DNA from: a virus
Lineage: Duplodnaviria; Heunggongvirae; Uroviricota; Caudoviricetes
IMG/VR virus record: IMGVR_UViG_3300042564_004737
Strand: one strand, 5' to 3'
Length of the DNA stretch: 64,000 bases
Shown here piece by piece: positions 6,755 through 49,855 of this stretch (positions are counted from its first letter, which is position 1; the number at the start of each line of letters is the position of its first letter). A program made the translations under genes and the position numbers. The notes beneath the pieces were generated by a model, which was not told where the DNA came from, did no database searches, and saw only the letters and a list, made by a program, of their open reading frames with translations.

Positions 6755-7555
6755 TTACTTGTTCATCATGAGTGCGTTGAAGTTGCTGGGCACAACAATG
6801 GTCTGCACTCGACCTGCTTTGATACCTTCTGAAATATTCAACATGGCCTGTGCCTGCATGAACGCAATAGAACTGGCACTGTTGTTGGCCAGTGCTGCCA
6901 TACGTCGAGCTTCAGCTTCGGCAGTTTTGACTTCGACTTCTTTCTGTTTGAGTTCGTTTTTGGCCTTGACCAGTTCGTTGGCACTGGCCACAACTGAGTC
7001 TGCTGGCACAATATTACGAATCAGCACCTGACTGATAGTGATCGAACCGTCCAGTTTTTCTTCGGTGAGATTACGAACAATTTCTTCCTTGATGAAGTTT
7101 TCCATGTCGCTACGAGCATCGGCCATGTCCAAGGCTTCGTACTTGCGAGCGGCCTTGTAGATAGCATTACGAGCATTCTGCACAATGTAGTTATACATCA
7201 CAAGAGTGTCGCCACTTTTGCTTTCAGCATGAAAGCTCTTGTTCTTGGTGCTGTATAGTTCAGCCACTTGCTGTGGGTTGATGTTGTAGACCACAACAGC
7301 ATCAAAGTCTTTCATGGTCGAATTGTCTTTGGCCACAGGAGTCATGTTCTCCAAGCTCACATTAACATCCTTGATTGGAAATGTCAGCACATCACCGATC
7401 AAGGTTTGATTGAACGAGCCTGGCAACAGTTCGCCAGATTTTACCTGTTTGTCAAAGCCAACTCGAACACCAACCTCGCCGGTTTCAATGCGAGTGCAAG
7501 CACTGGTAAGAGCCACAGCCGCAGCCACGATAGAAAGTTTAATAACACGATTCAT
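6755..7555 (-). CDS. SPFH/band-7 (prohibitin/flotillin-like) domain lipoprotein
   Basis: start MNRVIKLSIVAAAVALTSAC = signal peptide + lipobox; SPFH-like core with coiled-coil Ala-rich C-terminus. Confidence 0.55.
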   Translation of the reverse strand: MNRVIKLSIVAAAVALTSACTRIETGEVGVRVGFDKQVKSGELLPGSFNQTLIGDVLTFPIKDVNVSLENMTPVAKDNSTMKDFDAVVVYNINPQQVAELYSTKNKSFHAESKSGDTLVMYNYIVQNARNAIYKAARKYEALDMADARSDMENFIKEEIVRNLTEEKLDGSITISQVLIRNIVPADSVVASANELVKAKNELKQKEVEVKTAEAEARRMAALANNSASSIAFMQAQAMLNISEGIKAGRVQTIVVPSNFNALMMNK

Positions 7556-7640
7556 TAGATAACTCCAGTAGAAAAAAGTAAAACACACACCCAAAAGCCC
7601 AAAGCAAAATACAAGGGCCTAATCCAAAAATCACTAATCA

Positions 7641-7827
7641 TTATGATTCCTTAAAATAAAATTACCAGCACTGTCATTACCATGACCACTGCCAGTGACA
7701 CAAGTATACTATAGCCTATGCTTTTTGTCAAGGCCAATTGTTCCTTGCCGTCCATCTTTCTAACAGCAGTGATGCCGAAGTGTATGAGAACAGCAATAAC
7801 GGCAAACGCCAACCAAAGTTTAATCAT
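7641..7827 (-). CDS. small membrane protein (58 aa)
   Basis: MIKLWLAFAVIAVLIHFGITAV...; RBS GGAGTTGAACT-ATG embedded in 3' end of upstream micro-gene. Confidence 0.45.
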
Positions 7828-7847
7828 AGTTCAACTCCAAAAAAATA

Positions 7848-7916
7848 TTATTTGCCCAAGTAGTAGACAACTACAGTGGGACCAATTACACACACAAGGG
7901 CCAATAGTTCAATCAT
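7848..7916 (-). CDS. micro-ORF, 22-aa hydrophobic peptide
   Basis: MIELLALVCVIGPTVVVYYLGK; start ATGA-overlaps upstream stop; GGAGTTGACCC-ATG. Confidence 0.3.
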   Translation of the reverse strand: MIELLALVCVIGPTVVVYYLGK

Positions 7917-8032
7917 GGGTCAACTCCGTGATATTTCAATTGTGGTCTACGCCACACTAACCATCCAATATACAGACCCTGTAGCCATCCAATCGCCAGG
8001 CACATTAGTAATAACCAATCATGGTGTGTCAT
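7913..8032 (-). CDS. micro-ORF, 39-aa hydrophobic peptide
   Basis: MTHHDWLLLMCLAIGWLQGLYIGWLVWRRPQLKYHGVDP; GGAGTTGAAGA-ATG; ends ...GGAGTTGACCCATGA. Confidence 0.35.
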   Translation of the reverse strand: MTHHDWLLLMCLAIGWLQGLYIGWLVWRRPQLKYHGVDP

Positions 8033-8035
8033 TCT

Positions 8036-8251
8036 TCAACTCCGAAATTTATCTGCCACTGTGTAGTAGACGTCCATTCCATCATCCATTGCCTGTAGCA
8101 CTTCATTTAACACATCCTGCACAATCAACTCGGCAAACTTTTTATAGGCTGCTTCAGATTCTTCGGCTGACATGGCTCGCGGCCACGGCGTACCGTCGAG
8201 ATCCACATACAGTCCGGCCTGTTCAGCAAGTTCTTGAATTCGTTCGTTCAT
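8036..8251 (-). CDS. MNER...FAELIV small protein, paralog 1
   Basis: 71 aa; MNERIQELAEQAGL...; start created by GGAGTTGAAGAATGA at end of paralog 2. Confidence 0.55.
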   Translation of the reverse strand: MNERIQELAEQAGLYVDLDGTPWPRAMSAEESEAAYKKFAELIVQDVLNEVLQAMDDGMDVYYTVADKFRS

Positions 8252-8424
8252 TCTTCAACTCCGAAATGTTGTAAGATATTTTTATGGTCATTTGCTTCTA
8301 GACAAATCTCAGCACATTCCCGTACAATCAACTGGGCGAACTTTTCTAGCTTAGTCGGAACGCCTGTTGGATTGTGGACCAGCAGTCCAGCTTCGCGGGC
8401 AAGTTCTAAAATTCGTTCGTTCAC
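8248..8424 (-). CDS. MNER...FGVEE small protein, paralog 2 (GTG start)
   Basis: 58 aa, MNERILELAREAGL...HFGVEE*; GTG start GTGA-overlapping stop of 8421..8849; not in ORF track (<60 aa). Confidence 0.45.
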   Translation of the reverse strand: MNERILELAREAGLLVHNPTGVPTKLEKFAQLIVRECAEICLEANDHKNILQHFGVEE

Positions 8425-8849
8425 TTTGCTATCTCCAGCCTAGTCAGTGCTGAATCAAACTTTTTGTCCGCTGTCCAGCCTGCAAGATAACCGTTGTCCT
8501 TGTCAAACTGTTGTAAAAATTCAGCTTCAGTAATCACTCTGTGTGACACAATCTGCTCGCCCAGGCACTCCTGGCTGAACTCTACAGCCTGTTCCATGGT
8601 CACAGTGTCTCTGGCCCATGATTCTGGCGAGTCTTCTGCCAGTTCCACAGCATACCTCATGCGGTATGATACCAAAGTATCCACCAGCACAATTTTGGTC
8701 TTGGGTTTTTTGCTCATGGTCCAGGAACCATCTTCGTTGTCCTTCCACACAACAGTGTCACCAATTCGCCAACCAACTGACTGCAACAGTTCGTCGCTGA
8801 GTGGCAGAACTAAATCGCCGTTTTCGTCCTGTTCTAGTCTAACAATCAT
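8421..8849 (-). CDS. hypothetical protein
   Basis: 142-aa ORF. Confidence 0.4.
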   Translation of the reverse strand: MIVRLEQDENGDLVLPLSDELLQSVGWRIGDTVVWKDNEDGSWTMSKKPKTKIVLVDTLVSYRMRYAVELAEDSPESWARDTVTMEQAVEFSQECLGEQIVSHRVITEAEFLQQFDKDNGYLAGWTADKKFDSALTRLEIAK

Positions 8850-10123
8850 TTCTTTTTCTCCTCATCATAGTAGGCATGCTGTCCCCAAGGTGGCACAATA
8901 GTTGTGGTACCATGCAAGATCCACACAGTGTCTGCATAGTTCTCATCACCCCAGCTACCGTAAGGGTAACCGTCTGTGAACACCACCAGTCGCTTGGGTT
9001 CAATGTCGTTCTCTTTCAGGTAGTCAAACACACAATCAAAGTCTGTGCCTCCACCGCCCTTGATCTGGTATTCAGTGATGTCTTCTAAATTTTCTGAATT
9101 GTATTGCTGTGGATTGTACACTTCGGTATCAAAACTTGCAACATGGATACGATATGCAGGGAACGATTCCATGATGCCGGCTGTTTCGCTCAGGATGTCT
9201 TTGAGCATGTCCTCACCCATGGAACCCGAAGCGTCAATAAACAGTGCAATATCAATCATGGGATCCAGTTTCATGCCCGGCATCACTGCATCCATGTGCC
9301 AGCCTTTACGGCTTGCTCGCATCCAGGTGTAGTCACTTTTGATAGTGCTCTCCAATTGCATACGCAACAGTTCGCGCCAGTTCATCTGCGGCTCAGTGAG
9401 ATCACGAATAATACGCTGTACACCTGCGGGCAAATTGCCAGCACCATCAGCATCTGCTGCCACAGCAGACAACATGGCTTCTTTGATTTCGTCTTTGATT
9501 TGCCGACGGTCTTCTTCGCTGAGCTTGGGACGACCATTGCCATCTTTGCCGTCGCCATCGCCATCGCCTTCACCATCCAAGTGCTGGTCGATCATTTTGT
9601 CCAGCAATGAACCAATGTCAATCTTGTCTGCGTTTTGGTACAGGATGTCGTACACTTCTTCGGCACTCATGCCTTCGTATTTTTTGTCGTACAGGCAAGG
9701 TACACTGGTAATGAACTCGCCAACATTGTGTTTTTTCAAGTCGCCGTTGACACAGTAGTCGTCAGCAATGTTCCATAACTGTGGATCTCTGTCGCCTCTA
9801 CGGCCGAAGTGATCATATACACAATGCAACACTTCGTGGCCAAACAAGAATTCAACTTCTTTGGGTCGAAGCATTTTGATAAAACGGCTGTTGTAATAGA
9901 AATTACGACCGTCTGTTGCGGCAGTAGGGCACCACTTGTCAGCGTTGACCAGTGTAAGGCGAGTTGCCATGTTGCCAAAGAAACTGGCCTTCAGCAACAG
10001 TCCGACCCGTGCAGTGATCAAAATCTCACGAACTTCACGATCAATTTTAGGGTCAGTTGGGCCAACAAGATCTTTGAACTTGTCGCTGTCTTTGCTGTCT
10101 GCTGTGGTACCTGCTTTGCTCAT
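8846..10123 (-). CDS. VWA-domain protein with N-terminal HExxH metallopeptidase-like region (MoxR-associated, DUF2201/CobT-like)
   Basis: 'HEVLHCVYDHF' zincin-like motif; 'DASGSM' MIDAS-like motif; real start MSKAGTT at 10123 (track start is read-through of promoter, 'CYNIHI'). Confidence 0.6.
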   Translation of the reverse strand: MSKAGTTADSKDSDKFKDLVGPTDPKIDREVREILITARVGLLLKASFFGNMATRLTLVNADKWCPTAATDGRNFYYNSRFIKMLRPKEVEFLFGHEVLHCVYDHFGRRGDRDPQLWNIADDYCVNGDLKKHNVGEFITSVPCLYDKKYEGMSAEEVYDILYQNADKIDIGSLLDKMIDQHLDGEGDGDGDGKDGNGRPKLSEEDRRQIKDEIKEAMLSAVAADADGAGNLPAGVQRIIRDLTEPQMNWRELLRMQLESTIKSDYTWMRASRKGWHMDAVMPGMKLDPMIDIALFIDASGSMGEDMLKDILSETAGIMESFPAYRIHVASFDTEVYNPQQYNSENLEDITEYQIKGGGGTDFDCVFDYLKENDIEPKRLVVFTDGYPYGSWGDENYADTVWILHGTTTIVPPWGQHAYYDEEKKK

Positions 10124-10140
10124 GGTGTTCCTTTGTTGCG

Positions 10141-10160
10141 TTATGTGTATATTATAGCAC
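10141..10160 (-). promoter_or_regulatory. extended -10 promoter (coding strand TGCTATAATATACACATAA)
   Basis: member of repeated motif family; 15-20 nt upstream of RBS/start at 10123. Confidence 0.55.
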
Positions 10161-10221
10161 AAATTGAATTAATGGTCAAACGCTTACAAGCTCAGTTCGG
10201 CTGCACGTTCGCAGGCAGCAT

Positions 10222-11432: not shown

Positions 11433-12518
11433 TTAGGCCGAAGCCTGCAGGATGTACTTGCCAAAACGCTGATGGAACTCGTCAAAGTTCTTCAGCTTGG
11501 TGGGCTGGAACGGCAGGTTGTATGTGGTCAGGGCAATACGAGCACCCATCACAGTCAACTCTGTTTCAAAGTTCTTCATCATGTAGCCCAGGAAGTTGTC
11601 GGACATGGCATGGAATTCTTTGTCCGGAATCTTACGAGCCACTGCATCCTTGAGTTCGTAGCACATGGAGATCACCAGGCTGTACATGGCACTGACTTCT
11701 TTGACATCCAGTGTGGTGACTTTGCCGCTCAAGATATCTTCTGGATTGGGCAGTCTAGCACTGATCTTGCGGTGTGCCATGAACTTCACAGCAAGACCTT
11801 CGCCCACAGTGCCTGCAATCAGGTTGGTCAATGTGTCGGCATCGCCGTCATCTTCGCTCAACAGCTCGCTTACAAAAGTCCAGGTACGCGGTGTAGCAAA
11901 AGCTCGTGAGCTGGACTTGGAGTCAAAGTCATACAGGTCCTGTTTGGCAAAGCTCAAATAACCCACCACATCCTTGTGGATGTTGTTTTGCACTGCCCAG
12001 GTCTGGTACGATGCAAAGTCCACTTTCATTTCCTGGTGAATGAAACGATTTGCCAACGGTGTGGGCATACGATAAGTGACACCTTTGTCGCTTTCCCTAT
12101 TGCCTGCGGCCACCAAGACCACATTTTTAGGCAGGCGATACTTGCCAATGCGTCGATTCAGAATAAGTTGATAGGCCGCGGCTTGAACACTGGGTGCGGC
12201 ACTGTTCAGTTCGTCCAAGAACAACACCACAATGGGGTAGTCCCGGGCCATTTCTTCATCGGGCAGTTCAATTGGTGGAGCCCAATCCATCTTGCCCAGT
12301 TCTTTGTTGTAGAACGGAATACCACGAATGTCAGTGGGCTCCATCTGGCCCAGGCGCAGATCGATCATGAGTCCGCCCAGTTCTTCAGTGATGCCTTCTA
12401 CCAATTCGCTTTTGCCAATGCCTGGAGGACCCCACAAGAACAAGGGACGTTTGGCTCGGAATGCTCGTAGCAAACTTTTACGAGCTTGGGTCGAAGTAAC
12501 AGTGCGTGAATCTGACAT
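11433..12518 (-). CDS. MoxR-family AAA+ ATPase (CobS/CbbQ/NorQ-like)
   Basis: Walker A 'LWGPPGIGKS', Walker B 'VVLFLDELN', 361 aa; VWA partner two genes downstream. Confidence 0.75.
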   Translation of the reverse strand: MSDSRTVTSTQARKSLLRAFRAKRPLFLWGPPGIGKSELVEGITEELGGLMIDLRLGQMEPTDIRGIPFYNKELGKMDWAPPIELPDEEMARDYPIVVLFLDELNSAAPSVQAAAYQLILNRRIGKYRLPKNVVLVAAGNRESDKGVTYRMPTPLANRFIHQEMKVDFASYQTWAVQNNIHKDVVGYLSFAKQDLYDFDSKSSSRAFATPRTWTFVSELLSEDDGDADTLTNLIAGTVGEGLAVKFMAHRKISARLPNPEDILSGKVTTLDVKEVSAMYSLVISMCYELKDAVARKIPDKEFHAMSDNFLGYMMKNFETELTVMGARIALTTYNLPFQPTKLKNFDEFHQRFGKYILQASA

Positions 12519-18405: not shown

Positions 18406-18494
18406 GAAATTGTCCTTTTGTTTAAAAAAATATATATATCTAACAGTACAACGGATTGTTGTACAACATTATATATGCCGCATTACAAATAAGT

Positions 18495-18530
18495 CAAAAA
18501 AATAGGACCCGAAGGTCCTATTTACTATTT
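18495..18530 (-). terminator. rho-independent terminator ending tRNA/tmRNA operon
   Basis: aggacc-uucg-ggucc followed by UUUUUUU on minus strand. Confidence 0.65.
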
Positions 18531-18865
18531 TCTGTTTCTAAGCATAGTTGCTCAAAGCAGTGTTTAGACTGCTAAGGAGTGGCGTTGTGCTGTACGAGCA
18601 GAGAACTTGACGTTCTTACCTGAAACAGTTACTTCACCTGTATTTGCGTTTGCATTTACGGTTTTTGTGTCTACGGCCGAAATACTCCGACCCTAACGGC
18701 TTCTACATTGCCGGACTGTCCATTTCTTTACTTGTGACCCAATCGATAGCCTGGTCATCCCCACCTAAATATACCTCATACACTTAGGTGGAGATGGTGG
18801 GAGTCGAACCCACGTCTTGAATCCTTTTCTGTCTACTTCATACAGTCTTAACTTTTATTTATTTT
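18500..18865 (-). ncRNA. ssrA: circularly permuted (two-piece) tmRNA, ssrA: acceptor piece ~18865-18787, processing hairpin 18763-18786, coding piece 18762-~18500
   Basis: T-arm GTGGG-TTCGACT-CCCAC + 3' acceptor CATCTCC-A-CC upstream of 5' acceptor GGGGATG (G3:U70); 5' piece GGGGATGACCAGGCTATCGATTGGG matches tmRNA 5' consensus; ORF GCAAACGCA...TTAGCAGTCTAA (…HSLAV*). Confidence 0.6.
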
Positions 18866-18870
18866 ATATT

Positions 18871-18945
18871 TGGTCTCAGTAGCAGGAATCGAACCTACGC
18901 TCCTTGGTCCCAAACCAAGAGTGATACCATTTCACCATACTGAGA
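18871..18945 (-). tRNA. tRNA-Pro(TGG)
   Basis: cloverleaf read by hand; anticodon loop TTTGGGA; CCA encoded. Confidence 0.8.
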
Positions 18946-19111
18946 ATTAACTGGGAATCATTTTTGGCAAGTAAGGCACTGCCCTGGGTCCATGCCGTTG
19001 TTGCAGTAACAAACGAGCTTCTTGTGCATCGTTGGCACCAACCCTGTCCAAGAACTCTCGACCGTTTACTCTTACTGTTGCTTCAAATAGTTTCATACAC
19101 ACCTTTAAAAT

Positions 19112-19187
19112 TGGTACATCCTCACGGTTTCGAACCGCGGACCCTCTCCTTGTAAGGGAGACGCTCTACCCCTGAGCTAAGGATGCA
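19112..19187 (-). tRNA. tRNA-Val(TAC)
   Basis: anticodon loop CTTACAA; T-loop TTCGAAA. Confidence 0.8.
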
Positions 19188-19192
19188 AAAAA

Positions 19193-19268
19193 TGGAGCGG
19201 CTAACCGGGTTCGAACCGGTGACGTCTTGCTTGGCAAGCAAGTACTCTACCAACTGAGCTACAGCCGC
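19193..19268 (-). tRNA. tRNA-Gly(GCC)
   Basis: anticodon loop TTGCCAA. Confidence 0.8.
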
Positions 19269-19278
19269 ATATGTTAAC

Positions 19279-19354
19279 TGGTACCAAGAGACGGGATCGA
19301 ACCGCCCACACACGAATTTTCAATCCGCTGCTCTACCAACTGAGCTATCTTGGT
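19279..19354 (-). tRNA. tRNA-Phe(GAA)
   Basis: anticodon loop TTGAAAA. Confidence 0.75.
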
Positions 19355-19355
19355 G

Positions 19356-19430
19356 TGGTGGAAGTAAGTAGATTCGAACTACTGACCCGCAGCGTATGAA
19401 GCTGCTGCACTACCGCTGTGCTATACTTCC
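19356..19430 (-). tRNA. tRNA-Met/Ile2(CAT) copy 1
   Basis: anticodon loop TTCATAC; perfect acceptor GGAAGTA/TACTTCC. Confidence 0.8.
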
Positions 19431-19440
19431 AGAACTGCTG

Positions 19441-19517
19441 TGGGGTATAGTATGGAATTCGAATCCATGCTGACGGAATCACAATCCGTAGTGCTGACCG
19501 CTGACACTAACTACACC
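19441..19517 (-). tRNA. tRNA-His(GTG) with G-1
   Basis: anticodon loop TTGTGAT; extra 5' G; discriminator C. Confidence 0.75.
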
Positions 19518-19641
19518 ATATAGAAACACACTACGGAGTCGAACCGCCTTGCTAGCTCCTCGCCCGAGGATGGCATTCGAGCAACCCATAACACCCGCCG
19601 CTAAACGGGCTCGTCACTCTATGCTAGTGTGTTTTTATATG
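19516..19641. repeat. palindromic element A (terminal IR CCATATAGAAACACACT / AGTGTGTTTTTATATG, ~90-nt structured core)
   Basis: inverted repeat arms 19516-19532 and 19626-19641; abuts tRNA-His 5' end. Confidence 0.6.
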
Positions 19642-19645
19642 ATCT

Positions 19646-19761
19646 GACCATATAAGAACACATTCGTTTCCTAGCTTTACGGCGGCATGCCTGCTCTTTG
19701 GGATAGCACCTGCGTCCAGTTGCTAGGTATCCACTAACCGTTGAATGTGTTCTTATATGGC
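19646..19761. repeat. palindromic element B (IR GACCATATAAGAACACATTC / GAATGTGTTCTTATATGGC)
   Basis: arms 19646-19665 and 19743-19761; nested inner IR cctagc...gctagg. Confidence 0.6.
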
Positions 19762-19867
19762 GTCGCTACCCTCTGGCGGTCAAGCCTGCTCTTGCGACTT
19801 CTTGGCGATTGCCCATCCCCTATGTGTTGTGACTAGCAACCTAGTTGGTCCGGGATCTACCAATACT

Positions 19868-19996
19868 GACCATAGTTGAATACACTCTCGGCGTAAAGGG
19901 CTTTTTCATCGTGCTAGTTAAGCTACTTCGTTGCGTCCGCCCTGCTAACCAAGCAGACTGTCGGGTCAACCAATGATGAATGTATTCAACTATGGC
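19868..19996. repeat. palindromic element C (IR GACCATAGTTGAATACAC / GAATGTATTCAACTATGGC)
   Basis: arms 19868-19886 and 19978-19996. Confidence 0.55.
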
Positions 19997-20044
19997 AACT
20001 TCTAATTCAAGCAAGGGCGTGTGACCATTGAACTCAAATAGTTT

Positions 20045-20149
20045 TACCATATAGAAACACACTATTGTTTTACAATAAACTACGCTCCTGAGTTTCTGCT
20101 CAGGACCCCATAGGTCTGCCTATGTTTTCTAATGTGTTTTTATATGGTA
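20045..20149. repeat. palindromic element D (IR TACCATATAGAAACACACT / AATGTGTTTTTATATGGTA)
   Basis: arms 20045-20063 and 20131-20149; right arm overlaps 3' CCA of tRNA-Lys. Confidence 0.6.
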
Positions 20150-20220
20150 GGACCACCCGGACTCGAACCGGGAATTGGCAGATTAAAAGTCTGCTGTGAT
20201 AACCATTTCACTATGATCCC
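20145..20220 (-). tRNA. tRNA-Lys(TTT)
   Basis: anticodon loop CTTTTAA. Confidence 0.75.
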
Positions 20221-20365
20221 ATACTCAGTCGTGAATTGTCTTTCGAGTGCCAATCCAGACCGACATGGGATCTGGGTTGACACTACATTTTAGCTGTTCG
20301 CTTCATATAGTCTTTCGTTTAAGTTTTGATTATACAACAATTGCAGAATGTTGTCAACTGTTTTT

Positions 20366-20442
20366 GGTGCGTCCTGAGAGACTCGAACTCCCGGCCCCCG
20401 GCTTCGTAAACCAGTGCTCTGATCCAGCTGAGCTAAAGACGC
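20366..20442 (-). tRNA. tRNA-Arg(ACG)
   Basis: anticodon loop TTACGAA; T-arm GGGAG-TTCGAGT-CTCTC. Confidence 0.7.
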
Positions 20443-20450
20443 ATTGAGTA

Positions 20451-20520
20451 GCCCCGGAGGAAGGAATCGAACCTTCATTGGTTGTATACGGACCTGTGTT
20501 ACCATTACACTACAACCGGG
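20451..20520 (-). tRNA. tRNA-like gene, anticodon unresolved
   Basis: good T-arm GAAGG-TTCGATT-CCTTC and 5-bp acceptor, but anticodon arm could not be folded canonically. Confidence 0.3.
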
Positions 20521-20529
20521 ATAAAAAGA

Positions 20530-20604
20530 TGGTGCCCCACGACAGAATCGAACTGCCATCACAGGATTACAAAACCAGTGTACTGCCATTGTACTAGTAG
20601 GGCT
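20530..20604 (-). tRNA. tRNA-Thr(TGT) (tentative)
   Basis: anticodon loop TTTGTAA with two mismatches in anticodon stem; acceptor GCCCTAC/GTGGGGC. Confidence 0.5.
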
Positions 20605-20610
20605 AAAAAT

Positions 20611-20686
20611 TGGCTCCTCAGGTACGGATCGAACGTACGACATCTTCATTAACAGTGAAGCGCAACTACCGCTGTGCTACTGAGGA
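20611..20686 (-). tRNA. tRNA-Asn(GTT)
   Basis: anticodon loop CTGTTAA; perfect acceptor TCCTCAG/CTGAGGA. Confidence 0.8.
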
Positions 20687-20695
20687 ATAAACCAT

Positions 20696-20787
20696 TGGTG
20701 GAGAATAAGAGATTCGAACTCTTGGAGCCAATTACTTGACCCGACAGGTTAGCAACCTGCTGCCTTCGACCACTCGGCCAACTCTCC
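20696..20787 (-). tRNA. tRNA-Ser(GCT), class II
   Basis: 92 nt, long variable arm; anticodon loop TTGCTAA. Confidence 0.75.
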
Positions 20788-20834
20788 GTTATCTCTATTA
20801 TATAGCAGTTGACCAACAGTGTCAACATATATTT

Positions 20835-20910
20835 GGTGCCGCCACGTGAACTCGAATCACGGACCTTTCGCTTATCAAGCGAATGCTCTAACCAACTGAG
20901 CTATGGAGGC
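20835..20910 (-). tRNA. tRNA-Ile(GAT)
   Basis: anticodon loop TTGATAA. Confidence 0.75.
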
Positions 20911-20917
20911 ATTATTT

Positions 20918-20991
20918 TGGCAGAGGGTACTGGGATCGAACCAGTGATGACAGAGTCAAAGTCTGTAGTGTTGCCGCTACACTAACCCCCA
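20918..20991 (-). tRNA. tRNA-Gln(TTG)
   Basis: anticodon loop CTTTGAC; 1-72 mismatch. Confidence 0.65.
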
Positions 20992-20998
20992 ATAAATT

Positions 20999-21074
20999 TG
21001 GTGGAGGATATCAGGATCGAACTGATTACCTACTGCTTGCAAAGCAGCCGCTCTCCCAAATGAGCTAATCCCCC
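20999..21074 (-). tRNA. tRNA-Ala(TGC)
   Basis: anticodon loop TTTGCAA; G3:U70 in acceptor GGGGGAT/ATCCTCC. Confidence 0.75.
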
Positions 21075-21080
21075 GTTTTT

Positions 21081-21157
21081 TGGCCGGCCCTGAGAGATTC
21101 AAACTCCCAACTTCCAGTTTCGAAGACTGGCACTCTATTCGATTGAGTTAAGGACCG
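21081..21157 (-). tRNA. tRNA-Arg(TCG)
   Basis: anticodon loop CTTCGAA. Confidence 0.75.
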
Positions 21158-21162
21158 ATGTT

Positions 21163-21238
21163 TGGCGTACCGCCAGGGATTCGAACCCCGAACCGCTGGT
21201 TTTGGAGACCAGAACTCTGCCAGTTGAGCTAGCGATAC
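21163..21238 (-). tRNA. tRNA-Trp(CCA)
   Basis: anticodon loop CTCCAAA. Confidence 0.8.
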
Positions 21239-21280
21239 ATTTTAAAAATTCAATACAAATTGCCAATAAGTACTGGTGAC

Positions 21281-21970
21281 ATGAAAAACTTTTTCTTACA
21301 CCAACTTGTTCATCAAAGACACCCGGAATATCAACCATTGACTTCAGTGTTGCCGATATGCAATGTCAAAAACTCAATGGCAAAAAGTCTAAAGGCACTG
21401 TCAAAAATTACATACAACAATGATGATGCCTTCCAGGCGTTTTCGGTCAACAGTAAATATTTTGAACTGATGGCCGAAAATCCAAAAACATTCAATGTAG
21501 ACAACATACCACCGGAGACACTGAGACAATGGGTGTACGATTCCGAGTTTGACGAATTACTAACAAAAAATTCTCACATGGAAGTAAAATTACAAGACCC
21601 AATTCTAAAATTTGTTGTCTCTGAATTTTTGAATGCCATTGGGCTAGATCCGGCTCACCTGGCCGTCAGTCGAGCAAAATTAAACATACAAAAACCTGGT
21701 CAAATATTTCCTTTGCATCTGGACCGAGTTCGGCACAATGACTATCATGCTGACGAAAAACAACTTGTGTCGGATCCATCACATGATAGATTTCTAATTT
21801 TTTTAGAAGATCAGCAACCGGGACAAATGTTTCAATTTGACATGTGTAACATAACATGGTCAGCCGGAGACGTGTTCACTTGGAATGCCCGAGACACCAT
21901 GCATGCATCAGCAAATACAGGATATTGGACCAGAAGACTTCTGTTGATTGATGTGGGCAAAAAGACCTGA
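21281..21970 (+). CDS. hypothetical protein (only sizeable plus-strand gene inside the tRNA region)
   Basis: ORF 21260..21970; probable start MKNFFLHQL at 21281. Confidence 0.45.
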   Translation: MKNFFLHQLVHQRHPEYQPLTSVLPICNVKNSMAKSLKALSKITYNNDDAFQAFSVNSKYFELMAENPKTFNVDNIPPETLRQWVYDSEFDELLTKNSHMEVKLQDPILKFVVSEFLNAIGLDPAHLAVSRAKLNIQKPGQIFPLHLDRVRHNDYHADEKQLVSDPSHDRFLIFLEDQQPGQMFQFDMCNITWSAGDVFTWNARDTMHASANTGYWTRRLLLIDVGKKT

Positions 21971-21999
21971 TCTGATTGCCCGTATTTTCTAACACACTG

Positions 22000-22090
22000 T
22001 TGCCAATGTGTGTATTAAAGCACACTCACCCGAATGGACCTTGTCACCTCCGCCTGCTGTCGGAAGTGTGCTTTAATACGCTGTGATTTT
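22000..22090. repeat. palindromic element E (IR TGTGTATTAAAGCACACT / AGTGTGCTTTAATACG)
   Basis: arms 22008-22025 and 22065-22080. Confidence 0.5.
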
Positions 22091-22184
22091 TCGCTCCACA
22101 AAAGGAGTTTCATCCCACAGGCCGCCCGTTTACAACTTGTTTTAAGTGCGTTGTCAGGACCTCGTTTCCTGGGCATTGCTGCTC

Positions 22185-22355
22185 TTATTCACACTTTGCG
22201 ATCTGCGACGGCCCTTGGGCAGTCTCTCGCTGTTTTGCTGCTCGGTGATGCTGTGCGGCACGTTCGACCTTTTTACGGATCAATTGCTTGAACTGTTCTT
22301 TAGTCAGTGTATGCGTTGCCGTCCACTCTGCTTGCTTAATCTTTTTATCTGTCAT
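22185..22355 (-). CDS. small basic Lys/Arg-rich protein (56 aa)
   Basis: MTDKKIKQAEWTATHTLTKEQFKQLIRKKVERAAQHHRAAKQRETAQGPSQIAKCE; AAGGAA RBS; not in track (<60 aa). Confidence 0.4.
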   Translation of the reverse strand: MTDKKIKQAEWTATHTLTKEQFKQLIRKKVERAAQHHRAAKQRETAQGPSQIAKCE

Positions 22356-22367
22356 TGTTCCTTGCTA

Positions 22368-22412
22368 AAATAAAAAAACCCTGGGTTTTTAATCCAGGGT
22401 CCTTGAAGTTTG
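22368..22412 (-). terminator. rho-independent terminator with conserved 5' flank CAAACTTCAAGGACCCTGG
   Basis: on minus strand ccctgg-auuaaaaa-cccagg then UUUUUUUAUUUU; same module at 29418-29460. Confidence 0.6.
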
Positions 22413-22611
22413 TCGGTTACTGCTGTTATGCGCAACTGCTTTCTTCTCGGACCCTGTGATTCGCTGTAATATTCTTGACACGGCCAAAACCGCGTGACCA
22501 CGGCTGAGCCTGGGTCGTTACGCGATGCATGGGGCTAAAAATATTAGTGTTCATCATAAATCCTATTGTATGTTATTTATCATTCTGTGTCAACCACCGA
22601 TGATTTGTTAT

Positions 22612-22687
22612 TGGTAGCGGGACTTGGATTTGAACCAAGGATTGCGAAGGCTTATGAGACCCTGCCGGTGACCGGACCCTTCCCGCG
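22612..22687 (-). tRNA. tRNA-Met(CAT) copy 2 (C1:U72 mismatch, possibly initiator-like)
   Basis: 76 nt; anticodon loop CTCATAA; T-arm CTTGG-TTCAAAT-CCAAG; CCA encoded. Confidence 0.65.
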
Positions 22688-22699
22688 GTAGTTTATTTA

Positions 22700-22763
22700 T
22701 CTATTCTGAAACACACTATCTGCGGCATTGCAGCCCGCATCAGCTTAATGTGTTTTAGAATAG
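22700..22763. repeat. palindromic element F (IR TCTATTCTGAAACACACT / TAATGTGTTTTAGAATAG)
   Basis: immediately 5' of tRNA-Met copy 2. Confidence 0.55.
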
Positions 22764-23100
22764 TGGAGCACTGAGAATACATGCTTACCCAACAACACCT
22801 CGGACATTATTACGATCCTTGCGAGACCGCTTTCTTCCGACTTCCACCAAGACCCTTGCAGGTTTCCTGGTCTGTTGCCAGCATCGCCGTTTTTAAAGAC
22901 AGGCAGTAGTCTTGTCGCCATATGCTATTCTACGCTTTCTATCCCGTTGACCTTTAGAGCCATTCACTGTCGCTAAACAGTTACGAAACTTCCTGCATAA
23001 ACAGATTTCACCTTGCGAGTTACGTCTGACTTGATTCTCTTGCGAGCCAAGTATTAGATGCTTTTCACATACGACCGAGTCAGTCTTTGCTTTTTAATAG

Positions 23101-23176
23101 TTAGATGGATTTGAACCGTCTGCCTACTCCTTAACAGGGAGTTGCTCTACCAATTGAGCTATAACGAACCTACTGC
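23101..23176 (-). pseudogene. tRNA-Asn(GTT)-like element with defective acceptor stem
   Basis: perfect anticodon arm ACTCC-CTGTTAA-GGAGT and D-arm, T-loop TTCAAAT, but only 5/7 acceptor pairs and C-A mismatch in T stem. Confidence 0.3.
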
Positions 23177-23714
23177 GATGTGCTGACTCAGTTGCTGCAT
23201 AAAGTTTTGCTCTACACAATACAACACACCACGTTCCTTTTGTCTTGCGAACTACTCAGACGTCTTTTGCGATCTGTGTTGACCCCGCCTTTCGACAGCC
23301 TCCACTGACCACTCAAACTGCATACAAGCCCTTGGGTGCAACCCCTCGGACCGATACACTACCCTTTCTCATGCCAATTAACTGGACTGGTTTTGTTGTG
23401 AAGTCAGCACCACCTGTTACTTTCCATCTGCTCCGGTTACCCTTGCGGGCCGGTAAGCCGACGTTCTTTCCACAACATCCAGCGTCATTGTTACCTCCAC
23501 CGGTCTTATCAGTGAAGGGACTCTCGCGAGTCTGAGCAGGCTTGTCTAAACGAACCGTTGCTGGCGGAGTTATGTAGGCATACCTCCTTTGGCTGTGTCA
23601 CCACAGTTATTCTTCACTAGACAGCAAGCTGCCTAGTAGGACATTAAACTGCCCCGGAATCTTATTGTAACATCAACTGTTGAACTTGTCAACACCTAAT
23701 TTTACCAAACTTTA

Positions 23715-23818
23715 TATTGTTGAACACACCACTGAAATTGAGTATGAAGGAATCGAACCTTCTTTCACGCCCCACGTACTCGATGCCCGTTTCAGTCAGG
23801 CTAATGTGCTCAACAATA
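23715..23818. repeat. palindromic element G (IR TATTGTTGAACACACC / AATGTGCTCAACAATA) enclosing a tRNA 3'-half-like T-arm
   Basis: inner GAAGG-TTCGATT-CCTTC T-arm without matching 5' half. Confidence 0.45.
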
Positions 23819-23903
23819 TCAAGTAAGTATCTATTGTATGACAAACATCTTTGCTTGTCAAATTGTTTTGGATAAACTGATAAAAAGTTTATCCAACACG
23901 ATC

Positions 23904-23993
23904 TGGTACCAGCGGAGAGAATCGAACTCTCTCAAAGCCGCTAATCTGGCGGAAAGGGCATATAAGACCCCTCGGACTCCAAGTCTCGCTGGC
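23904..23993 (-). tRNA. class-II-length tRNA-like gene (90 nt), anticodon loop CTTATAT (TAT?) uncertain
   Basis: acceptor GCCAGCG/CGCTGGT + A + CCA, T-arm GAGAG-TTCGATT-CTCTC, long variable hairpin; 3-bp D stem; anticodon stem has G:U pairs. Confidence 0.35.
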
Positions 23994-24369
23994 ATATTGA
24001 ATTTGTTAGAGTAGCAGCACCACGTTATTGCTGCCATTCACCCGAATTAACAAGCTCGAGCGGGAGTCGGTAAGTTACTTGGGATACCGGTCCAGTTGAT
24101 ACGCCGTCATGTATGCCGATCCCACTCAAGCGATCAGCCGGGCATCGAACCCGCAACCTTCTACTGTTTTGGTCCTTCGAAGAAACCTAGACAGCGTGAC
24201 TTTCTCTTGCTAACACTCTAACAAAACTTGGCGCCCCTAACAGGAATTAAACCTGTCTACGTTCAGCTTCAAATCTGACTCGCAACACAGTCCAGGGCAT
24301 AACTTGGCGCAGAACATTTCTGTTTTTATCCGTGTCCAGGAATATTACTCCAGACAAAAACTGCAAATT

Positions 24370-24461
24370 TGGGGCATCATGTGGGATTCGAACCCACGCA
24401 AGAAAACCTTGATGATCATTCAAGGTTGAGGCAAACCGCACCCCGTTACATCCTATGACAC
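24370..24461 (-). tRNA. class-II-length tRNA-like gene (92 nt), anticodon unresolved
   Basis: acceptor GTGTCAT/ATGATGC + C + CCA, T-arm GTGGG-TTCGAAT-CCCAC; internal hairpin CCTTGA-ATGATCA-TCAAGG. Confidence 0.3.
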
Positions 24462-24706
24462 CATAAACTAATTAAGAGCTTGTAGACCAAACTACAATTT
24501 ACCGGTTTCTAGACGAACTCTTAAACTTGGTGGTTAGTGCTGTTGCGACACAGCGACATCCCTTGAGCGAGAGCGTAGGAACTTAATCTACGGGTAAACA
24601 CCTCTTGGGTCGAACAGTCAGGACAATTACTTTTGTAAGGCGTACTAAGCAGCGCCTGTTCAGAGCGCTCCCTTTGGGTTACTTTCATTTCCAACTAACC
24701 AAAACT

Positions 24707-24783
24707 TGGTAGGCCCTCTGTGAGTCGAACACAGCACCAACAGATTATGAGTCTGCTGCTCTAACCAACATGAGCTAAGGGCC
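24707..24783 (-). tRNA. tRNA-Met(CAT) copy 3
   Basis: anticodon loop CTCATAA; T-loop TTCGACT. Confidence 0.75.
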
Positions 24784-24791
24784 TGTTAACT

Positions 24792-24866
24792 TGGCGATGC
24801 GTGGGAGAGTCGAACTCCCGTCTCTGGATAGACAATCCAGGATAATGACCGTTATATGAACGCACC
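24792..24866 (-). tRNA. tRNA-Asp(GTC)
   Basis: anticodon arm CTGGA-TTGTCTA-TCCAG. Confidence 0.8.
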
Positions 24867-25100
24867 TAAATTTGTGAAAATGTTATGAGGACTCTTACCC
24901 CACCGTTGTTTGTATAGGCTGCGCGACCCATACGTCCCGGACACATTTTCTGACCCGGCGGTGTTTACTTTGTGGCTCTTGCTTTCCACTTGATTTCGTT
25001 TCCCGGTCGGAACTTCACCGACAATATACTGCAAGCATCTATGCAGCCTTGTTAATTCATCGCCCACAGGATTTGCATTAGGGCTCTGACGAGAAATATT

Positions 25101-25187
25101 TGGTGGATGAGGTTGGACTTGAACCAACAATGCCATTACGACGGAAGATTTACAGTCTCCTGGGGTTACCAATTTTCCTACACATCC
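25101..25187 (-). tRNA. tRNA-Tyr(GTA), class II
   Basis: 87 nt; anticodon loop CTGTAAA; long variable arm. Confidence 0.7.
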
Positions 25188-25194
25188 AAAAACA

Positions 25195-25269: not shown

Positions 25270-25274
25270 AAATT

Positions 25275-25743: not shown

Positions 25744-25745
25744 AT

Positions 25746-47447: not shown

Positions 47448-48372
47448 GCGAAATCATGTCATGCAAAGTATGTTTTTGCCATGCGCCGTCCACAGCCATT
47501 CCAAACTTGGCAGCACTGGCAGTAAGTACGGGTGGATCGCCTGGTCGTGCCTGACTAAGTTGAACGACCGCAGCACTGCCAGTGACCTGTTGTGCTGTAT
47601 CAATGATTTCTCTGTTGCTGGTTCCGTTGTTGGATCCAAGATTGTATACGCCTGCTGTGACTTTTGAATCCAGCGCCATGACGTGTGCTCGGGCAATATC
47701 TTCCACATGCACATAGTCTCGTACACAGGTTCCGTCGGGAGTGGGGTAATCAATGCCGTTGAGCACAAATTCTGTACGGTCCCGAATGCTTTCCAGCACT
47801 CGAGCAATGATGTGTGTTGCCCCGGGCTCTTGACCGTGCCGGCCTTGGCTGTCTGCGCCACACGCATTGAAATAGCGAAATGCCACATAGTCTAGACCAT
47901 ATGCACGGTGATAACTTTCCAGGATCTGTTCCACCATCAGTTTGCTTTGACCATAGGGACTTATGGGTTCCTTTGGATCAACTTCATCACACGGAGTCAT
48001 AACAGGGTCACCGTACACTGCTGCACTGCTGCTAAAGATAAATCTGGTTTGCGGCATTGCAGCCATAACAATGTTCAGCAGGTTGAGAGTCTTGACCACA
48101 TTGTTGTTGTAGTAATCACTGGGACGCAGAATGCTAGGGCCAACCAAGCTGGTGCCTGCACAGTGTACAATGGCTGCGGGCCGTACAGAAATCAACTTGC
48201 GATAAGAGTCGTCGCTGTCAAAGTCTGCTTGTACAAAGTCCATAACGTCTTTGAGATGACTTGACAAGGGTCTGCGATCAATACCAACCACAGTGTGCCC
48301 TGCATCTTTCAACAACAGGGCAATTTCGCCACCAATGTAACCAGCAGCACCTGTTACTACAACAGTGCTCAT
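47413..48372 (-). CDS. NAD-dependent sugar epimerase (GalE/UDP-glucose 4-epimerase-like)
   Basis: 'VVVTGAAGYIGGEIALLL' and YxxxK-type SDR pattern, 319 aa. Confidence 0.7.
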   Translation of the reverse strand: MSTVVVTGAAGYIGGEIALLLKDAGHTVVGIDRRPLSSHLKDVMDFVQADFDSDDSYRKLISVRPAAIVHCAGTSLVGPSILRPSDYYNNNVVKTLNLLNIVMAAMPQTRFIFSSSAAVYGDPVMTPCDEVDPKEPISPYGQSKLMVEQILESYHRAYGLDYVAFRYFNACGADSQGRHGQEPGATHIIARVLESIRDRTEFVLNGIDYPTPDGTCVRDYVHVEDIARAHVMALDSKVTAGVYNLGSNNGTSNREIIDTAQQVTGSAAVVQLSQARPGDPPVLTASAAKFGMAVDGAWQKHTLHDMISHAWTWYNRSHV

Positions 48373-49571
48373 GATTCGATCTTTCTCACATGATATTTGT
48401 CTTGTGCCACATGATCACGATATCGATTGCCTGCACGATTCCATTGTTCGCCGCGGCCTTCAATGATATCAACCACACGATCAACTGTGCCGTTGTTCCA
48501 GTCGCTGATCAAGCCCATGTTGTGATGTGGTTCACGCAGCAAGTTTTGCATCTTGTGATAAGCATCATCTATGCTCCAGGGAACATAAAGTCGATTAGGA
48601 TCGTTTGCAAAAGTTTCAGGAAAGCTACGATAAGCAGGATAGAGCACATTAGCTCCAAGAGTGTCAGCTTCCGAGACGGTGTTGCTAACCCAGTCCTGTA
48701 AAGCACAATTGAACAATACACGAGTGTCATTGAGATGATCATAATATTCATTCTTGCTTATGTTGTCATAGATTTTTAACTTGCCGGCTGCTTCCATGGC
48801 TCTAGCACGGGTCACAAATTCAGGATTGTTGCTGCGCAATGCACCGCCGGAGTAGATGGCAAACTCACAAGGCTCCGTGGTGAGTTCACCGTACATCTCA
48901 ATCAGATCCATGAAGAAGCCCGGTTGTTTTTCTTGATCAAACCTAGCTGCAAAACCCACTCGACGAGGGCGTTCTTCAAATGGTCGGACTTTTTCCGCAC
49001 CGCCGATGCGTTCCAGTACTTCTGCCTTGCCGAACGCCAAGCCTGAGATGTTGTAGATAGGAGCAGTCCAGCCTGCAATACGCATGTGAGCAACCATTTC
49101 TTCGTTGGTAGCAAGCACACCTGTCACAAACTCATTGACCATTTTTTCATACAGGCCCATCCACTTTTCCATGCCCCATACATGAACAAAATCATCAGGA
49201 TCAATGGCCTGAGCAAGACAGCGAACATAGATCCTAGGACGCTGATCCGCATCCACTTGATCAAGAATATAAGGCAAGCTCTCGATACCGGGCTGAAACA
49301 TGTCTTCAAAGTAGATCACATCTTCACTTGTGACTTCTCCTCGGCGCATCATTTGCACAAGATTCATCATTTGGCTCATGCCAAAGTAACTGCGGCCGTG
49401 TGCATCCAACACCTGTCCCACGCTGATACTTTGTGTGTTGTCAATGGTGCTGCCTGGAACATAAACTACATCCAACCCTCTACGATCGAACACACGACGG
49501 TTCCATTCAGTCAGTTGTAGAGTGTACCTTGCTTCATACGACTCCAAACCACAATAAAATAGTTTTCTCAT
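48369..49571 (-). CDS. hypothetical protein (possible glycosyltransferase)
   Basis: 400-aa ORF, start created by GGAGTTGAAGAATGA overlap. Confidence 0.35.
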   Translation of the reverse strand: MRKLFYCGLESYEARYTLQLTEWNRRVFDRRGLDVVYVPGSTIDNTQSISVGQVLDAHGRSYFGMSQMMNLVQMMRRGEVTSEDVIYFEDMFQPGIESLPYILDQVDADQRPRIYVRCLAQAIDPDDFVHVWGMEKWMGLYEKMVNEFVTGVLATNEEMVAHMRIAGWTAPIYNISGLAFGKAEVLERIGGAEKVRPFEERPRRVGFAARFDQEKQPGFFMDLIEMYGELTTEPCEFAIYSGGALRSNNPEFVTRARAMEAAGKLKIYDNISKNEYYDHLNDTRVLFNCALQDWVSNTVSEADTLGANVLYPAYRSFPETFANDPNRLYVPWSIDDAYHKMQNLLREPHHNMGLISDWNNGTVDRVVDIIEGRGEQWNRAGNRYRDHVAQDKYHVRKIES

Positions 49572-49855
49572 TCTTCAACTCCAAAAAAATGTTCTCTAAT
49601 GGCCACATAACTATCAACACCGCATTGGACATATCCACCCCAATGCGTGTCCTTCATCATGACTTCATCTTCCAACACAGGTTTGTATTGTTCTTCAACC
49701 TGCCGCAAGCATTCCGTCACAATCAACTCGGCGAACTTTGTATCATAAGATTCCGAATACACTTTCAATGCTTGTTCTCGGTCTGTGATTTTAATCATAG
49801 CATCAAGAGCATATTTTTTAGCCTGTTCGGCAAATTGTTTAATCTTCTCGTTCAT
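49568..49855 (-). CDS. MNEK...FAELIV...FFGVEE small protein, paralog 3
   Basis: shares MNExI..(F/L)AEQA, FAELIV(T/Q)(E/D)C and terminal GVEE* with 8036..8251 and 8248..8424. Confidence 0.55.
   Translation of the reverse strand: MNEKIKQFAEQAKKYALDAMIKITDREQALKVYSESYDTKFAELIVTECLRQVEEQYKPVLEDEVMMKDTHWGGYVQCGVDSYVAIREHFFGVEE

Follow-up and report, generated by a model that had tools for sequence, protein, structure and literature searches.

A recurrent predicted ribosome-site junction links small genes in a mosaic protein family of uncultured phages

Overlaps of the form ATGA, in which the stop codon of one gene shares bases with the start codon of the next, support termination-reinitiation in bacteria when the upstream gene contains a Shine-Dalgarno (SD) sequence (Huber et al. 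2019, PMC6728339). For five gene pairs tested in E. coli, SDs of this intragenic kind raised re-initiation in four (PMC6728339). Here we analyze a junction of this type, GGAGTTGA-NNN-ATGA, in 64,000 nucleotides of DNA from an uncultured phage (Caudoviricetes; IMG/VR record IMGVR_UViG_3300042564_004737), referred to as the window throughout. The junction connects genes in a chain of small minus-strand open reading frames (ORFs) and at the same time encodes the C-terminal end of a large family of small proteins. As in the bacterial cases, the overlaps are co-directional and four nucleotides long, and the upstream gene has a strong SD in its final codons, spaced as usual from the next start (PMC6728339). 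The phage junction differs in that one fixed string of 15-21 nt is reused hundreds of times across diverged phages, dictates the C-terminal peptide of the family, and persists where it is frameshifted or non-coding; no masking structure is predicted around it.

Two further described systems are close in other respects. The PeSLs of T4-type phages are intergenic units of ~100 bp that combine a sigma70-like early promoter with a terminator stem-loop (Arbiol et al. 2010, PMC2839356; PMC4122927). Like PeSLs, the junctions are short conserved expression signals that flank small non-essential genes in hyperplastic regions and travel with the gene, and relatives differ in having repeat-bounded genes inserted, deleted or replaced (here by a 206-bp indel in the related locus L008). 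Unlike PeSLs, the signal is translational and located inside coding sequence (15-21 nt, or ~45 nt where two family genes abut), and the promoter and terminator composite was not found at the junctions. In the gp38 adhesins of T-even phages, conserved glycine-rich motifs separate hypervariable segments, and phage crosses yielded domain swaps with exchange positions that were mapped relative to the motifs and segments (PMC3157838). The family described here likewise has strictly conserved short motifs between interchangeable hypervariable segments. It is not related to gp38 in sequence or fold, forms a small helical bundle that is often encoded in tandem, and has one motif that doubles as the ribosome-binding site (RBS) of the next gene.

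The pattern GGAGTTGAMSMATGA, which represents GGAGTTGA-NNN-ATGA, was found with at most one mismatch at five sites in the window, all on the minus strand (7824, 7913, 8029, 8248 and 49568), compared to 0.05 sites expected from shuffled sequence. The 8-mer GGAGTTGA occurs six times, against 1.9 expected. Four of the five sites are part of an unbroken chain of small genes on the minus strand (7555-8849), in the order 142-aa gene, paralog A, paralog B, 39-aa, 22-aa, 58-aa and 28-aa ORFs, SPFH lipoprotein gene. The fifth connects a distant paralog, C, to a 400-aa gene (Table 1). According to a preliminary description of this DNA, five of the minus-strand ORFs (58, 22, 39, 71 and 58 aa) were chained by start-stop overlaps, and each upstream ORF ended in G-V-(E/D)-(E/P). 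The five ORFs are indeed present, the chaining and the shared ending hold for some of them. True four-nucleotide overlaps exist between the 142-aa gene and A (GTGA), between A and B (ATGA), between the 39-aa and 22-aa ORFs (ATGA), and between C and the 400-aa gene (ATGA), but B and the 39-aa ORF are separated by a 3-nt gap, and the 22-aa and 58-aa ORFs by a 20-nt gap. Similarly, A ends in GVEE and the 39-aa ORF in HGVDP, but B ends in KFRS and the 22-aa ORF in LGK followed by TAA. The claim that the third copy donates its tail to the 400-aa gene was borne out, as C ends in HFFGVEE and its ATGA overlaps the start of that gene.

The geometry is that of an SD, a spacer and a start codon, with GGAG placed 7 nt ahead of the junction ATG. 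A GGAG is also located 8 nt before the GTG of paralog A, where the stop codon of the 142-aa gene overlaps this start, and the end of the 28-aa ORF, GGAGTTATCTAATG, provides SD and start for the SPFH gene in a similar junction. An overlap of four bases is in itself nothing unusual in the window (10 of 76 adjacent minus-strand pairs). In a crude gene call across the window, most genes were found to use AAGGA(G) as ribosome site, and GGAGTTGA therefore represents a special class rather than the default RBS. Pairing of the junction with the 16S rRNA 3' end GAUCACCUCCUUA gave a predicted duplex of -8.5 to -8.7 kcal/mol, compared to -5.4 kcal/mol for the usual AAGGA, with the proviso that the 16S 3' end of the host may differ. 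The predicted duplex consists of GGAG (4 bp), a mismatch, and UGA (3 bp). Terminator-like sites were not found at any junction on the coding strand. One promoter-like match overlaps a junction, and it is weak (9/12, 7939-7912, between the 39-aa and 22-aa ORFs); the best match (11/12) is inside the 58-aa ORF.

Paralogs A, B and C are related, as had been claimed (BLASTP E=4e-9 for A versus B, and 3e-4 for A versus C), and a single hidden Markov model (HMM) detects all three. They do not constitute a local three-member family, as the preliminary description had it; instead, their shared ending represents the 3' block that is conserved throughout a family of more than 7,500 protein clusters. A profile built from the three paralogs matched 7,592 metagenomic protein clusters at E<=0.01 among 8,000 scored candidates. 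No Pfam domain or informative name was attached to any of the matched clusters. The listed members share the layout MNERIxELAEQA.../variable/...KFAELIVREC/variable/...I(K/R)(E/Q)HFGVEE, and judging by these sequences, -GVEE is the family-wide C-terminus.

For analysis at the nucleotide level, 80 IMG/VR loci were fetched via the peptide motifs of the family, and ten related metagenome loci and the window were included in the HMM search. A total of 266 family genes were identified, of which 234 are distinct; as many as 8 are found within 5 kb. The genes encode about 60-110 amino acids and are built from a 5' block, an N-module, a middle block, a C-module and a 3' block. The block consensus sequences are ATG AAC GAA CGA ATT... 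(5'), AAG TTC GCC GAG TTG ATT (middle) and CAT TTY GGA GTT GAA GAA TGA (3').

Codon usage in the 3' block was counted in 110 distinct genes ending in GVEE, with the interior of the same genes as baseline. The glycine codon was GGA in 108/110 cases (interior 27%), the valine codon GTT in 105/110 (39%), the first glutamate codon GAA in 107/110 and the second in 110/110 (77% for both), and the stop codon TGA in 109/110, which is also the number of genes with an ATGA overlap. Genes from different contigs have almost saturated synonymous divergence between the blocks (median pS about 0.55), and fixation of the tail is therefore not due to shared recent ancestry. The phenylalanine wobble base directly 5' of GGAG is free (TTC in 51% of genes), and conservation within the 15-mer is lowest at the two spacer bases right before the ATG. 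This is the pattern expected for an SD, a spacer and a start codon. Family genes without a start at the right distance had GTT in only 11/22 cases, compared to 151/173 otherwise (p=1e-4), and GGA in 18/22 compared to 168/173 (p=0.011).

The string is also found where it does not encode the tail of a family gene. The related loci (461 kb) contain 166 distinct GGAGTTGANNNATG sites, compared to about 0.2 by our own estimate for 11 fixed bases on both strands, and 32 of the 166 are intergenic or behind non-family ORFs. The 21-mer CATTTYGGAGTTGAAGAATGA was detected in at least 120 IMG/VR stretches; among 180 upstream ORFs selected by this 21-mer alone, 18 are unrelated proteins or short remnants ending in KHFGVEE. 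The frameshifted paralog B retains the string in the window and in the related loci L003 and L008, and so does the untranslated spacer at 7824-7838 of the window. Some two thirds of the genes that take their start from the junction do not belong to the family, and many of them encode small membrane proteins. Conservation in frameshifted, non-coding and unrelated-gene settings argues that the string functions as nucleic acid, namely as an SD with spacer and start codon. The tail -GVEE would then for the most part be imprinted by the ribosome site that serves the following gene, and would not be a peptide that the protein needs.

Alternatively, -HFGVEE could be a functional C-terminal peptide, for example for docking, degradation or export, with the codon bias reflecting a local preference. 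The residues H, F, G, V and E of the tail are 82-100% conserved as amino acids, and F is kept even though its wobble base is free. We nevertheless consider this explanation very improbable, because codon fixation of 95-100% against baselines of 27-77% goes far beyond codon preference, because identical nucleotides occur in non-coding spacers and on unrelated ORFs, and because the tail is of low confidence in the structure model (see below). Moreover, an allele that lacks the peptide through a frameshift is widespread. Paralog B ends in ...AAA TTT CGG AGT TGA, which reads KFRS and uses the TGA inside GGAGTTGA as stop codon, 3 nt before the ATG at 8032. The DKFRS tail was found in 24 of the best 120 database clusters, on several variants of the N-module. 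Unshifted relatives of B (P0013, P0103, P0112) end in -KFGVEE and differ by lacking one extra C before GGAG, so the DKFRS ending is a common derived allele. Programmed frameshifting was considered for paralog B, but inspection by eye did not reveal a slippery sequence in the required frame; rather, the frameshifted allele is merely a frequent one.

The 3' block is not the only conserved part of these genes. In the 5' block (codons 2-8, AAC GAA CGA ATT AAA GAA CTT), the CGA codon is used in 91-95% of cases, compared to a baseline of 22-36%. In the middle block (codons 37-42, AAG TTC GCC GAG TTG ATT), GAG is used in 88-93% (baseline 21-28%) and TTG in 85-93% (baseline 34-39%). Synonymous fixation of both blocks recurs in an independent set picked by the 3' 21-mer. 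The valine codon right after the middle block is free (V43, 43%). Fixation of the 5' block can be attributed to constraints on the start region. The middle block contains no start codon, does not match a known RNA family, and has no convincing pairing partner. In the window it is found at 8116-8133 and 49714-49731 (both minus strand), and it coincides with the crossover point of module reassortment. Two candidate roles were discarded. The heptamer GAGTTGA, which both the middle block and the 3' block contain, does not occur in excess in the window as one would expect for a Chi-like hotspot (12 copies versus 8.9 expected). Pairing between GAACTT of the 5' block and AAGTTC of the middle block, noticed by eye, would amount to just 6 bp across ~100 nt.

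These data bear on the simplest explanation, in which the 15-mer is kept only as RBS and start, mosaicism and the other blocks have separate causes, and recombination plays no special role. SD geometry and predicted pairing fit this explanation, as do the loosely conserved spacer and the free wobble of the adjacent phenylalanine codon, and convergent use is demonstrated by analogous tails in unrelated small genes of cultured phages on GGAGGTGAAGAATGA and GGAATTGAAGAATGA. We still regard it as unlikely, since the middle block lies ~110 nt inside the gene with GAG and TTG fixed and no useful start behind it, since the crossover of reassortment falls exactly on this block, and since a gene indel is bounded by the 15-mer.

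For the analysis of reassortment, 280 family proteins were split at the KFAELIV block, and the variable N and C parts were clustered separately at a 60% identity cut-off, which gave 124 and 184 clusters. Among the C-module clusters with several members, 21/35 were combined with at least two unrelated N-modules, and 22/23 multi-member N-module clusters were combined with at least two C-modules. Six quartets with all four combinations of modules were present. All three paralogs of the window are mosaic: the C-module of A occurs with another N-module in P0038, that of C with a B-type N-module in P0031, and that of B with three other N-modules. Entire genes come and go as well. Locus L008 contains an additional paralog gene (206 bp) that the window and L003 lack, and its edges coincide exactly with direct repeats of GGAGTTGAAGAATGA. 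In close relatives, the number and order of paralogs differ between the constant 142-aa and SPFH genes. Mosaics and a repeat-bounded indel would together be the signature of recombination between short repeats. A fixed-length variable region that differs by substitutions only, as in diversity-generating retroelements, was not found (N-module spacing ranges from 26 to 47 residues); a reverse transcriptase or template repeat was not searched for. As a separate observation, a comparison of the window with L003 and L008 shows a single variable position in the 120 nt of the 39-aa ORF region, next to numerous substitutions and an indel in the neighboring paralog B. This sameness reflects either unusually strong constraint or recent transfer of the segment.

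Recombination could in principle account for the blocks on its own. Gene conversion would homogenize them, the likeness to an SD would be incidental, and loss of the 3' block would not impair translation of downstream genes. The three blocks are alike in synonymous fixation, reassortment is extensive, and uncoupled terminal copies mostly keep GGA, all as expected if this were the case. On the other hand, conversion tracts would not spare individual wobble sites, and some of those within or at the blocks are fully free (F72, 51/49; V43, 43%). The 3' block ends exactly in ATGA with an ORF behind in 109/110 cases, the genes behind are for about two thirds non-family genes for which the block supplies the start, and the motif is also found ahead of genes that are not preceded by a family gene. 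Taken together, this makes an origin by recombination alone highly doubtful.

The reading that we favor, with moderate confidence, is that GGAGTTGA-NNN-ATGA is a standard translation-initiation joint that doubles as a homology joint for cassette shuffling. In translation, GGAGTTGA would pair with the 16S rRNA 3' end, followed by three spacer bases and the next ATG, the last two bases of which would form, with the following A, the TGA stop of the preceding gene. A ribosome would terminate at the TGA of ATGA (or, in the case of paralog B, at the TGA that precedes the ATG by 3 nt), the 30S subunit would be held at termination by the SD 7 nt upstream, and the next gene would be translated by re-initiation. 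Free ribosomes would probably load at the unstructured junction, too. We infer that ribosomes use the site by re-initiation, direct loading or both. In recombination, the near-identical blocks, present in many copies within and between phage genomes, would act as short homology joints. Exchange at the blocks would swap N- and C-modules, insert or delete genes, and graft the tail together with its RBS onto unrelated small genes. Such a joint would be portable: a gene placed behind it would gain an SD and a start, and a family gene would carry the joint along. Portability would explain why the joint bounds cassettes. We further infer that it is recombination at the blocks, rather than another function at the nucleotide level, that keeps the 5' and middle blocks fixed.

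Several points weigh against this reading, or at least against its completeness. Synonymous sites of the 5' and middle blocks show no less fixation than those of the 3' block, and fixation of the middle block does not seem to be explained by initiation, in which it has no obvious role. Selection on the RBS is therefore not the whole cause of nucleotide conservation. Conversely, the histidine and phenylalanine before the glycine are conserved as amino acids (F in 99% of cases with a free wobble base), which indicates that part of the tail is under protein-level selection. Family members that are not coupled to a downstream gene still have GGA in 18/22 cases, and the strength of the predicted duplex depends on the 16S 3' end that was chosen. 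RNA structure that masks the SD or start was not predicted beyond that of shuffled sequences at the junctions (z = -0.4 to +1.8), so that strict dependence on upstream translation is not indicated and independent initiation is equally plausible. Finally, translation of the micro-genes and its coupling are predictions from the DNA, and recombination at the blocks is deduced from mosaic patterns in metagenome assemblies. The translational-coupling module with duplicated copies that had been proposed in the preliminary description stands with respect to SD-in-tail geometry, pairing, fixed synonymous sites and retention of the string outside a GVEE reading, and is incomplete in that the other two blocks are equally fixed.

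A more far-reaching reading is that the blocks are cis-acting joints of a dedicated, integron-like diversification system, that phage recombination at these joints keeps assembling new variants of a two-module helical protein with a fast-evolving host factor as target, and that mini-genes move together with the RBS of the gene that comes next. The middle block would then be conserved as a recombination site, and not for coding or translation. This reading appears rather unlikely to us.

The three paralogs and 50 diverse homologs did not match any Pfam family at or above the curated cut-offs. No significant match to a PHROGs v4 family was found (best E=6e-4, in 7 of the 50 diverse members), and tblastn of paralog C and a consensus-like member against 50,697 phage records retrieved nothing even at E<=1. 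The AlphaFold model of paralog C is a three-helix bundle with an overall pLDDT of 91, in which the last residues, FGVEE, are the sole low-confidence part (pLDDT 56). A Foldseek search with this model against PDB and BFVD had no match at E<=0.001 and returned only generic helical proteins and uncharacterized proteins of uncultured phages. Full-text literature searches for the peptide motifs of the family did not find any paper. Variability and tandem copies suggest that the family may engage a fast-evolving partner of host or phage origin.

The coordinates of the chain and of the distant copy are collected in Table 1.

Table 1. Genes and junctions of the small-gene chain and of the distant paralog C (protein ends are given without the stop codon).
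Feature	Coordinates	Strand	Remarks
142-aa gene, upstream end of the chain	8421..8849	-	phrog_661, E=1.7e-12; annotated as gene in related contigs
Paralog A, 58 aa, GTG start, VNERILELAREAG...KFAQLIVREC...HFGVEE	8248..8424	-	mosaic member of the MNERI/KFAELIV/HFGVEE family
Junction 15-mer GGAGTTGAAGAATGA, A to B	8248..8262	-	final four codons plus stop of A, doubling as SD, spacer and ATG for B
Paralog B, 71 aa, ends ...DKFRS	8036..8251	-	1-nt insertion before GGAG; unshifted relatives end ...KFGVEE
Junction 15-mer GGAGTTGAAGAATGA, B to 39 aa, intact though B does not read GVEE	8029..8043	-	ATG of the 39-aa gene 3 nt past the stop of B
39-aa single-pass membrane micro-gene (predicted), MTHHDWLLLMCLAIGW...HGVDP	7913..8032	-	50%-identical homolog in unrelated contig L188
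Junction GGAGTTGACCCATGA, 39 aa to 22 aa, ATGA overlap	7913..7927	-	
22-aa hydrophobic micro-gene (predicted), MIELLALVCVIGPTVVVYYLGK	7848..7916	-	64-65% homologs in L145 and L111
Junction GGAGTTGAACTATGA in the non-coding spacer that follows the 22-aa ORF; provides the 58-aa gene with SD and start	7824..7838	-	tail remnant YFFGVEL behind TAA
58-aa two-pass membrane protein, conserved partner of the SPFH lipoprotein	7651..7827	-	40-53% homologs in L154, L121, L102 and L125
28-aa hydrophobic ORF, ...STGVI, GGAGTTATCTAATGA, sixth small ORF of the chain	7555..7641	-	71% homolog in L125
SPFH/Band_7 lipoprotein gene, 266 aa from ATG at 7555, last gene of the chain	6755..7555	-	PF01145, E=9e-19; phrog_200, E=2e-33
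Paralog C, 95 aa, ...HFFGVEE	49568..49855	-	family HMM; predicted three-helix bundle
Junction 15-mer GGAGTTGAAGAATGA, C to 400-aa gene, ATGA overlap	49568..49582	-	like arrangement in IMG/VR locus L017
400-aa gene started from the tail of paralog C	48369..49571	-	weak glycosyltransferase-like Pfam matches only

The small ORFs between the paralogs and the SPFH gene are hydrophobic by eye, and local tblastn identified diverged homologs with intact frames in unrelated contigs. One might suspect that the 22-, 28- and 39-aa ORFs are not genes at all, and that only the paralogs and the 58-aa gene are real, with spacer and chance ORFs in between. Gene callers omit these three ORFs in all related contigs, and the 28-aa ORF, for which a second frame is also open, has 10 non-synonymous differences and 1 synonymous difference with respect to L003 and L008. 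Yet the homologs of all three are intact despite their divergence (50% identity for the 39-aa, 64-65% for the 22-aa and 71% for the 28-aa ORF; Table 1), each ORF has an ATG and an SD at the right distance, and the 22-aa ORF differs from its L005 copy by 4 synonymous and 2 non-synonymous changes, which leaves only a very small chance for the spacer explanation. Coding status appears least certain for the 28-aa ORF. The 22-aa homolog in L111 starts directly on a family ATGA junction. In the spacer ahead of the 58-aa gene, the T-run before the GGAGTTGAACTATGA junction (7839-7847, minus strand) varies in length, with 7 T in the window, 9 in L003 and L008, and 4 in L005, which shifts the frame entering the GVEL remnant.

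The 58-aa gene is followed by a lipoprotein-type gene in each of the four contigs with a homolog, and the order 58-aa, 28-aa, lipoprotein is kept in L125. This assigns the 58- and 28-aa genes to the SPFH gene, and leaves the paralogs, together with the 39- and 22-aa genes, as the portion that can be shuffled. The arrangement of a two-pass 58-aa membrane protein, with or without the 28-aa ORF, before an SPFH/Band_7 lipoprotein gene (window 6755-7827, minus strand; L125:8561-8900; L154:672-900; L102:8209-8430) looks like a conserved phage module of an SPFH protein and a small membrane partner.

The chain appears to be one hyperplastic stretch within a single minus-strand operon. A sigma70-like promoter (10179-10151; TTGACC, 17 nt, TATAAT) precedes the VWA gene upstream of the chain, which would fit transcription of the whole chain as one operon. 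Just upstream of the chain are genes for a VWA/DUF2201 metallopeptidase-like protein (425 aa, 8846-10162, minus strand) and an AAA ATPase (MoxR-like, weak Pfam match; 11433-12518, minus strand). Homologs of the VWA/DUF2201 protein are found in many jumbo phages (PA5oct, Atu_ph07, Serratia phage BF), and their records often mis-annotate it as HNH or homing endonuclease. Rfam identified no RNA family in 7300-8900.

The DNA of the locus had no megablast match among the 50,697 phage records. The VWA/DUF2201 protein is ~47% identical to its counterpart in the Pseudomonas jumbo phage PA5oct, the window contains 30 tRNA genes and a permuted transfer-messenger RNA (tmRNA), and the exact paralog B protein is also encoded on a metagenome contig of 339,811 bp, and on many others. 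The window is therefore a piece of a ~340-kb uncultured jumbo phage.

The permuted (two-piece) tmRNA is located at 18564-18847 (minus strand; Rfam RF04321, 89 bits), next to the block of 30 tRNA genes (18871-29234, minus strand), and ARAGORN likewise calls a tmRNA (18473-18878). Permuted tmRNAs are known from only a few bacterial lineages, and the tmRNA may thus be a clue to the host. Bacterial genomes were also scanned for host clues, and only three short contigs with tandem family genes were found, in metagenome-assembled genome bins from lakes (L091-L093; Erken, LaPlata, Ja2). Although binned as Bacteroidetes or actinobacterium, they are probably mis-binned phage fragments and not prophages.

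Tails of a similar kind can be found outside the family. Gp028 of Rheinheimera phage Barba ends in ...EHLGGEE on GGAGGTGAAGAATGA, and ORF-238 of Edwardsiella phage PEi20 ends in ...LLGIEE on GGAATTGAAGAATGA before pseT; both overlap the next start. The family HMM does not detect these proteins (E>1), which are single cases and not members of a mosaic multi-copy family. In the loci concerned (L094, Barba1A gp028/gp027; L095, PEi20 ORF-238/pseT) and in a Manatee Spring myovirus (L096, ...FGVE, TAATG), strings like GGAGGTGAAGAATGA overlap the following start or lie directly next to it. Acidic tails encoded by an RBS may be common among phages with tightly packed genomes.

The mechanism of an SD in the upstream gene combined with an ATGA overlap is textbook knowledge (PMC6728339). 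What is new is the scale, with one fixed joint reused across a family of thousands, the finding that a conserved protein tail is largely the imprint of an RBS, and the presence of three joints, fixed at the DNA level, that frame two reassorting modules. The -GVEE tail, conserved in more than 7,500 clusters, would be a large-scale example of a protein end that mostly reflects a nucleic-acid signal of the neighboring gene, and it calls for caution when conserved termini are read as protein motifs. The junction is a candidate for a portable translation-initiation part in operon design. Among the loose ends, the most promising is why the middle block is conserved. For phage biology, the analysis defines a very abundant, unnamed family of small proteins of uncultured phages with an unusual build of three joints and two modules, and this family offers a tractable system to study how phages shuffle and express accessory mini-genes that lack promoters of their own.

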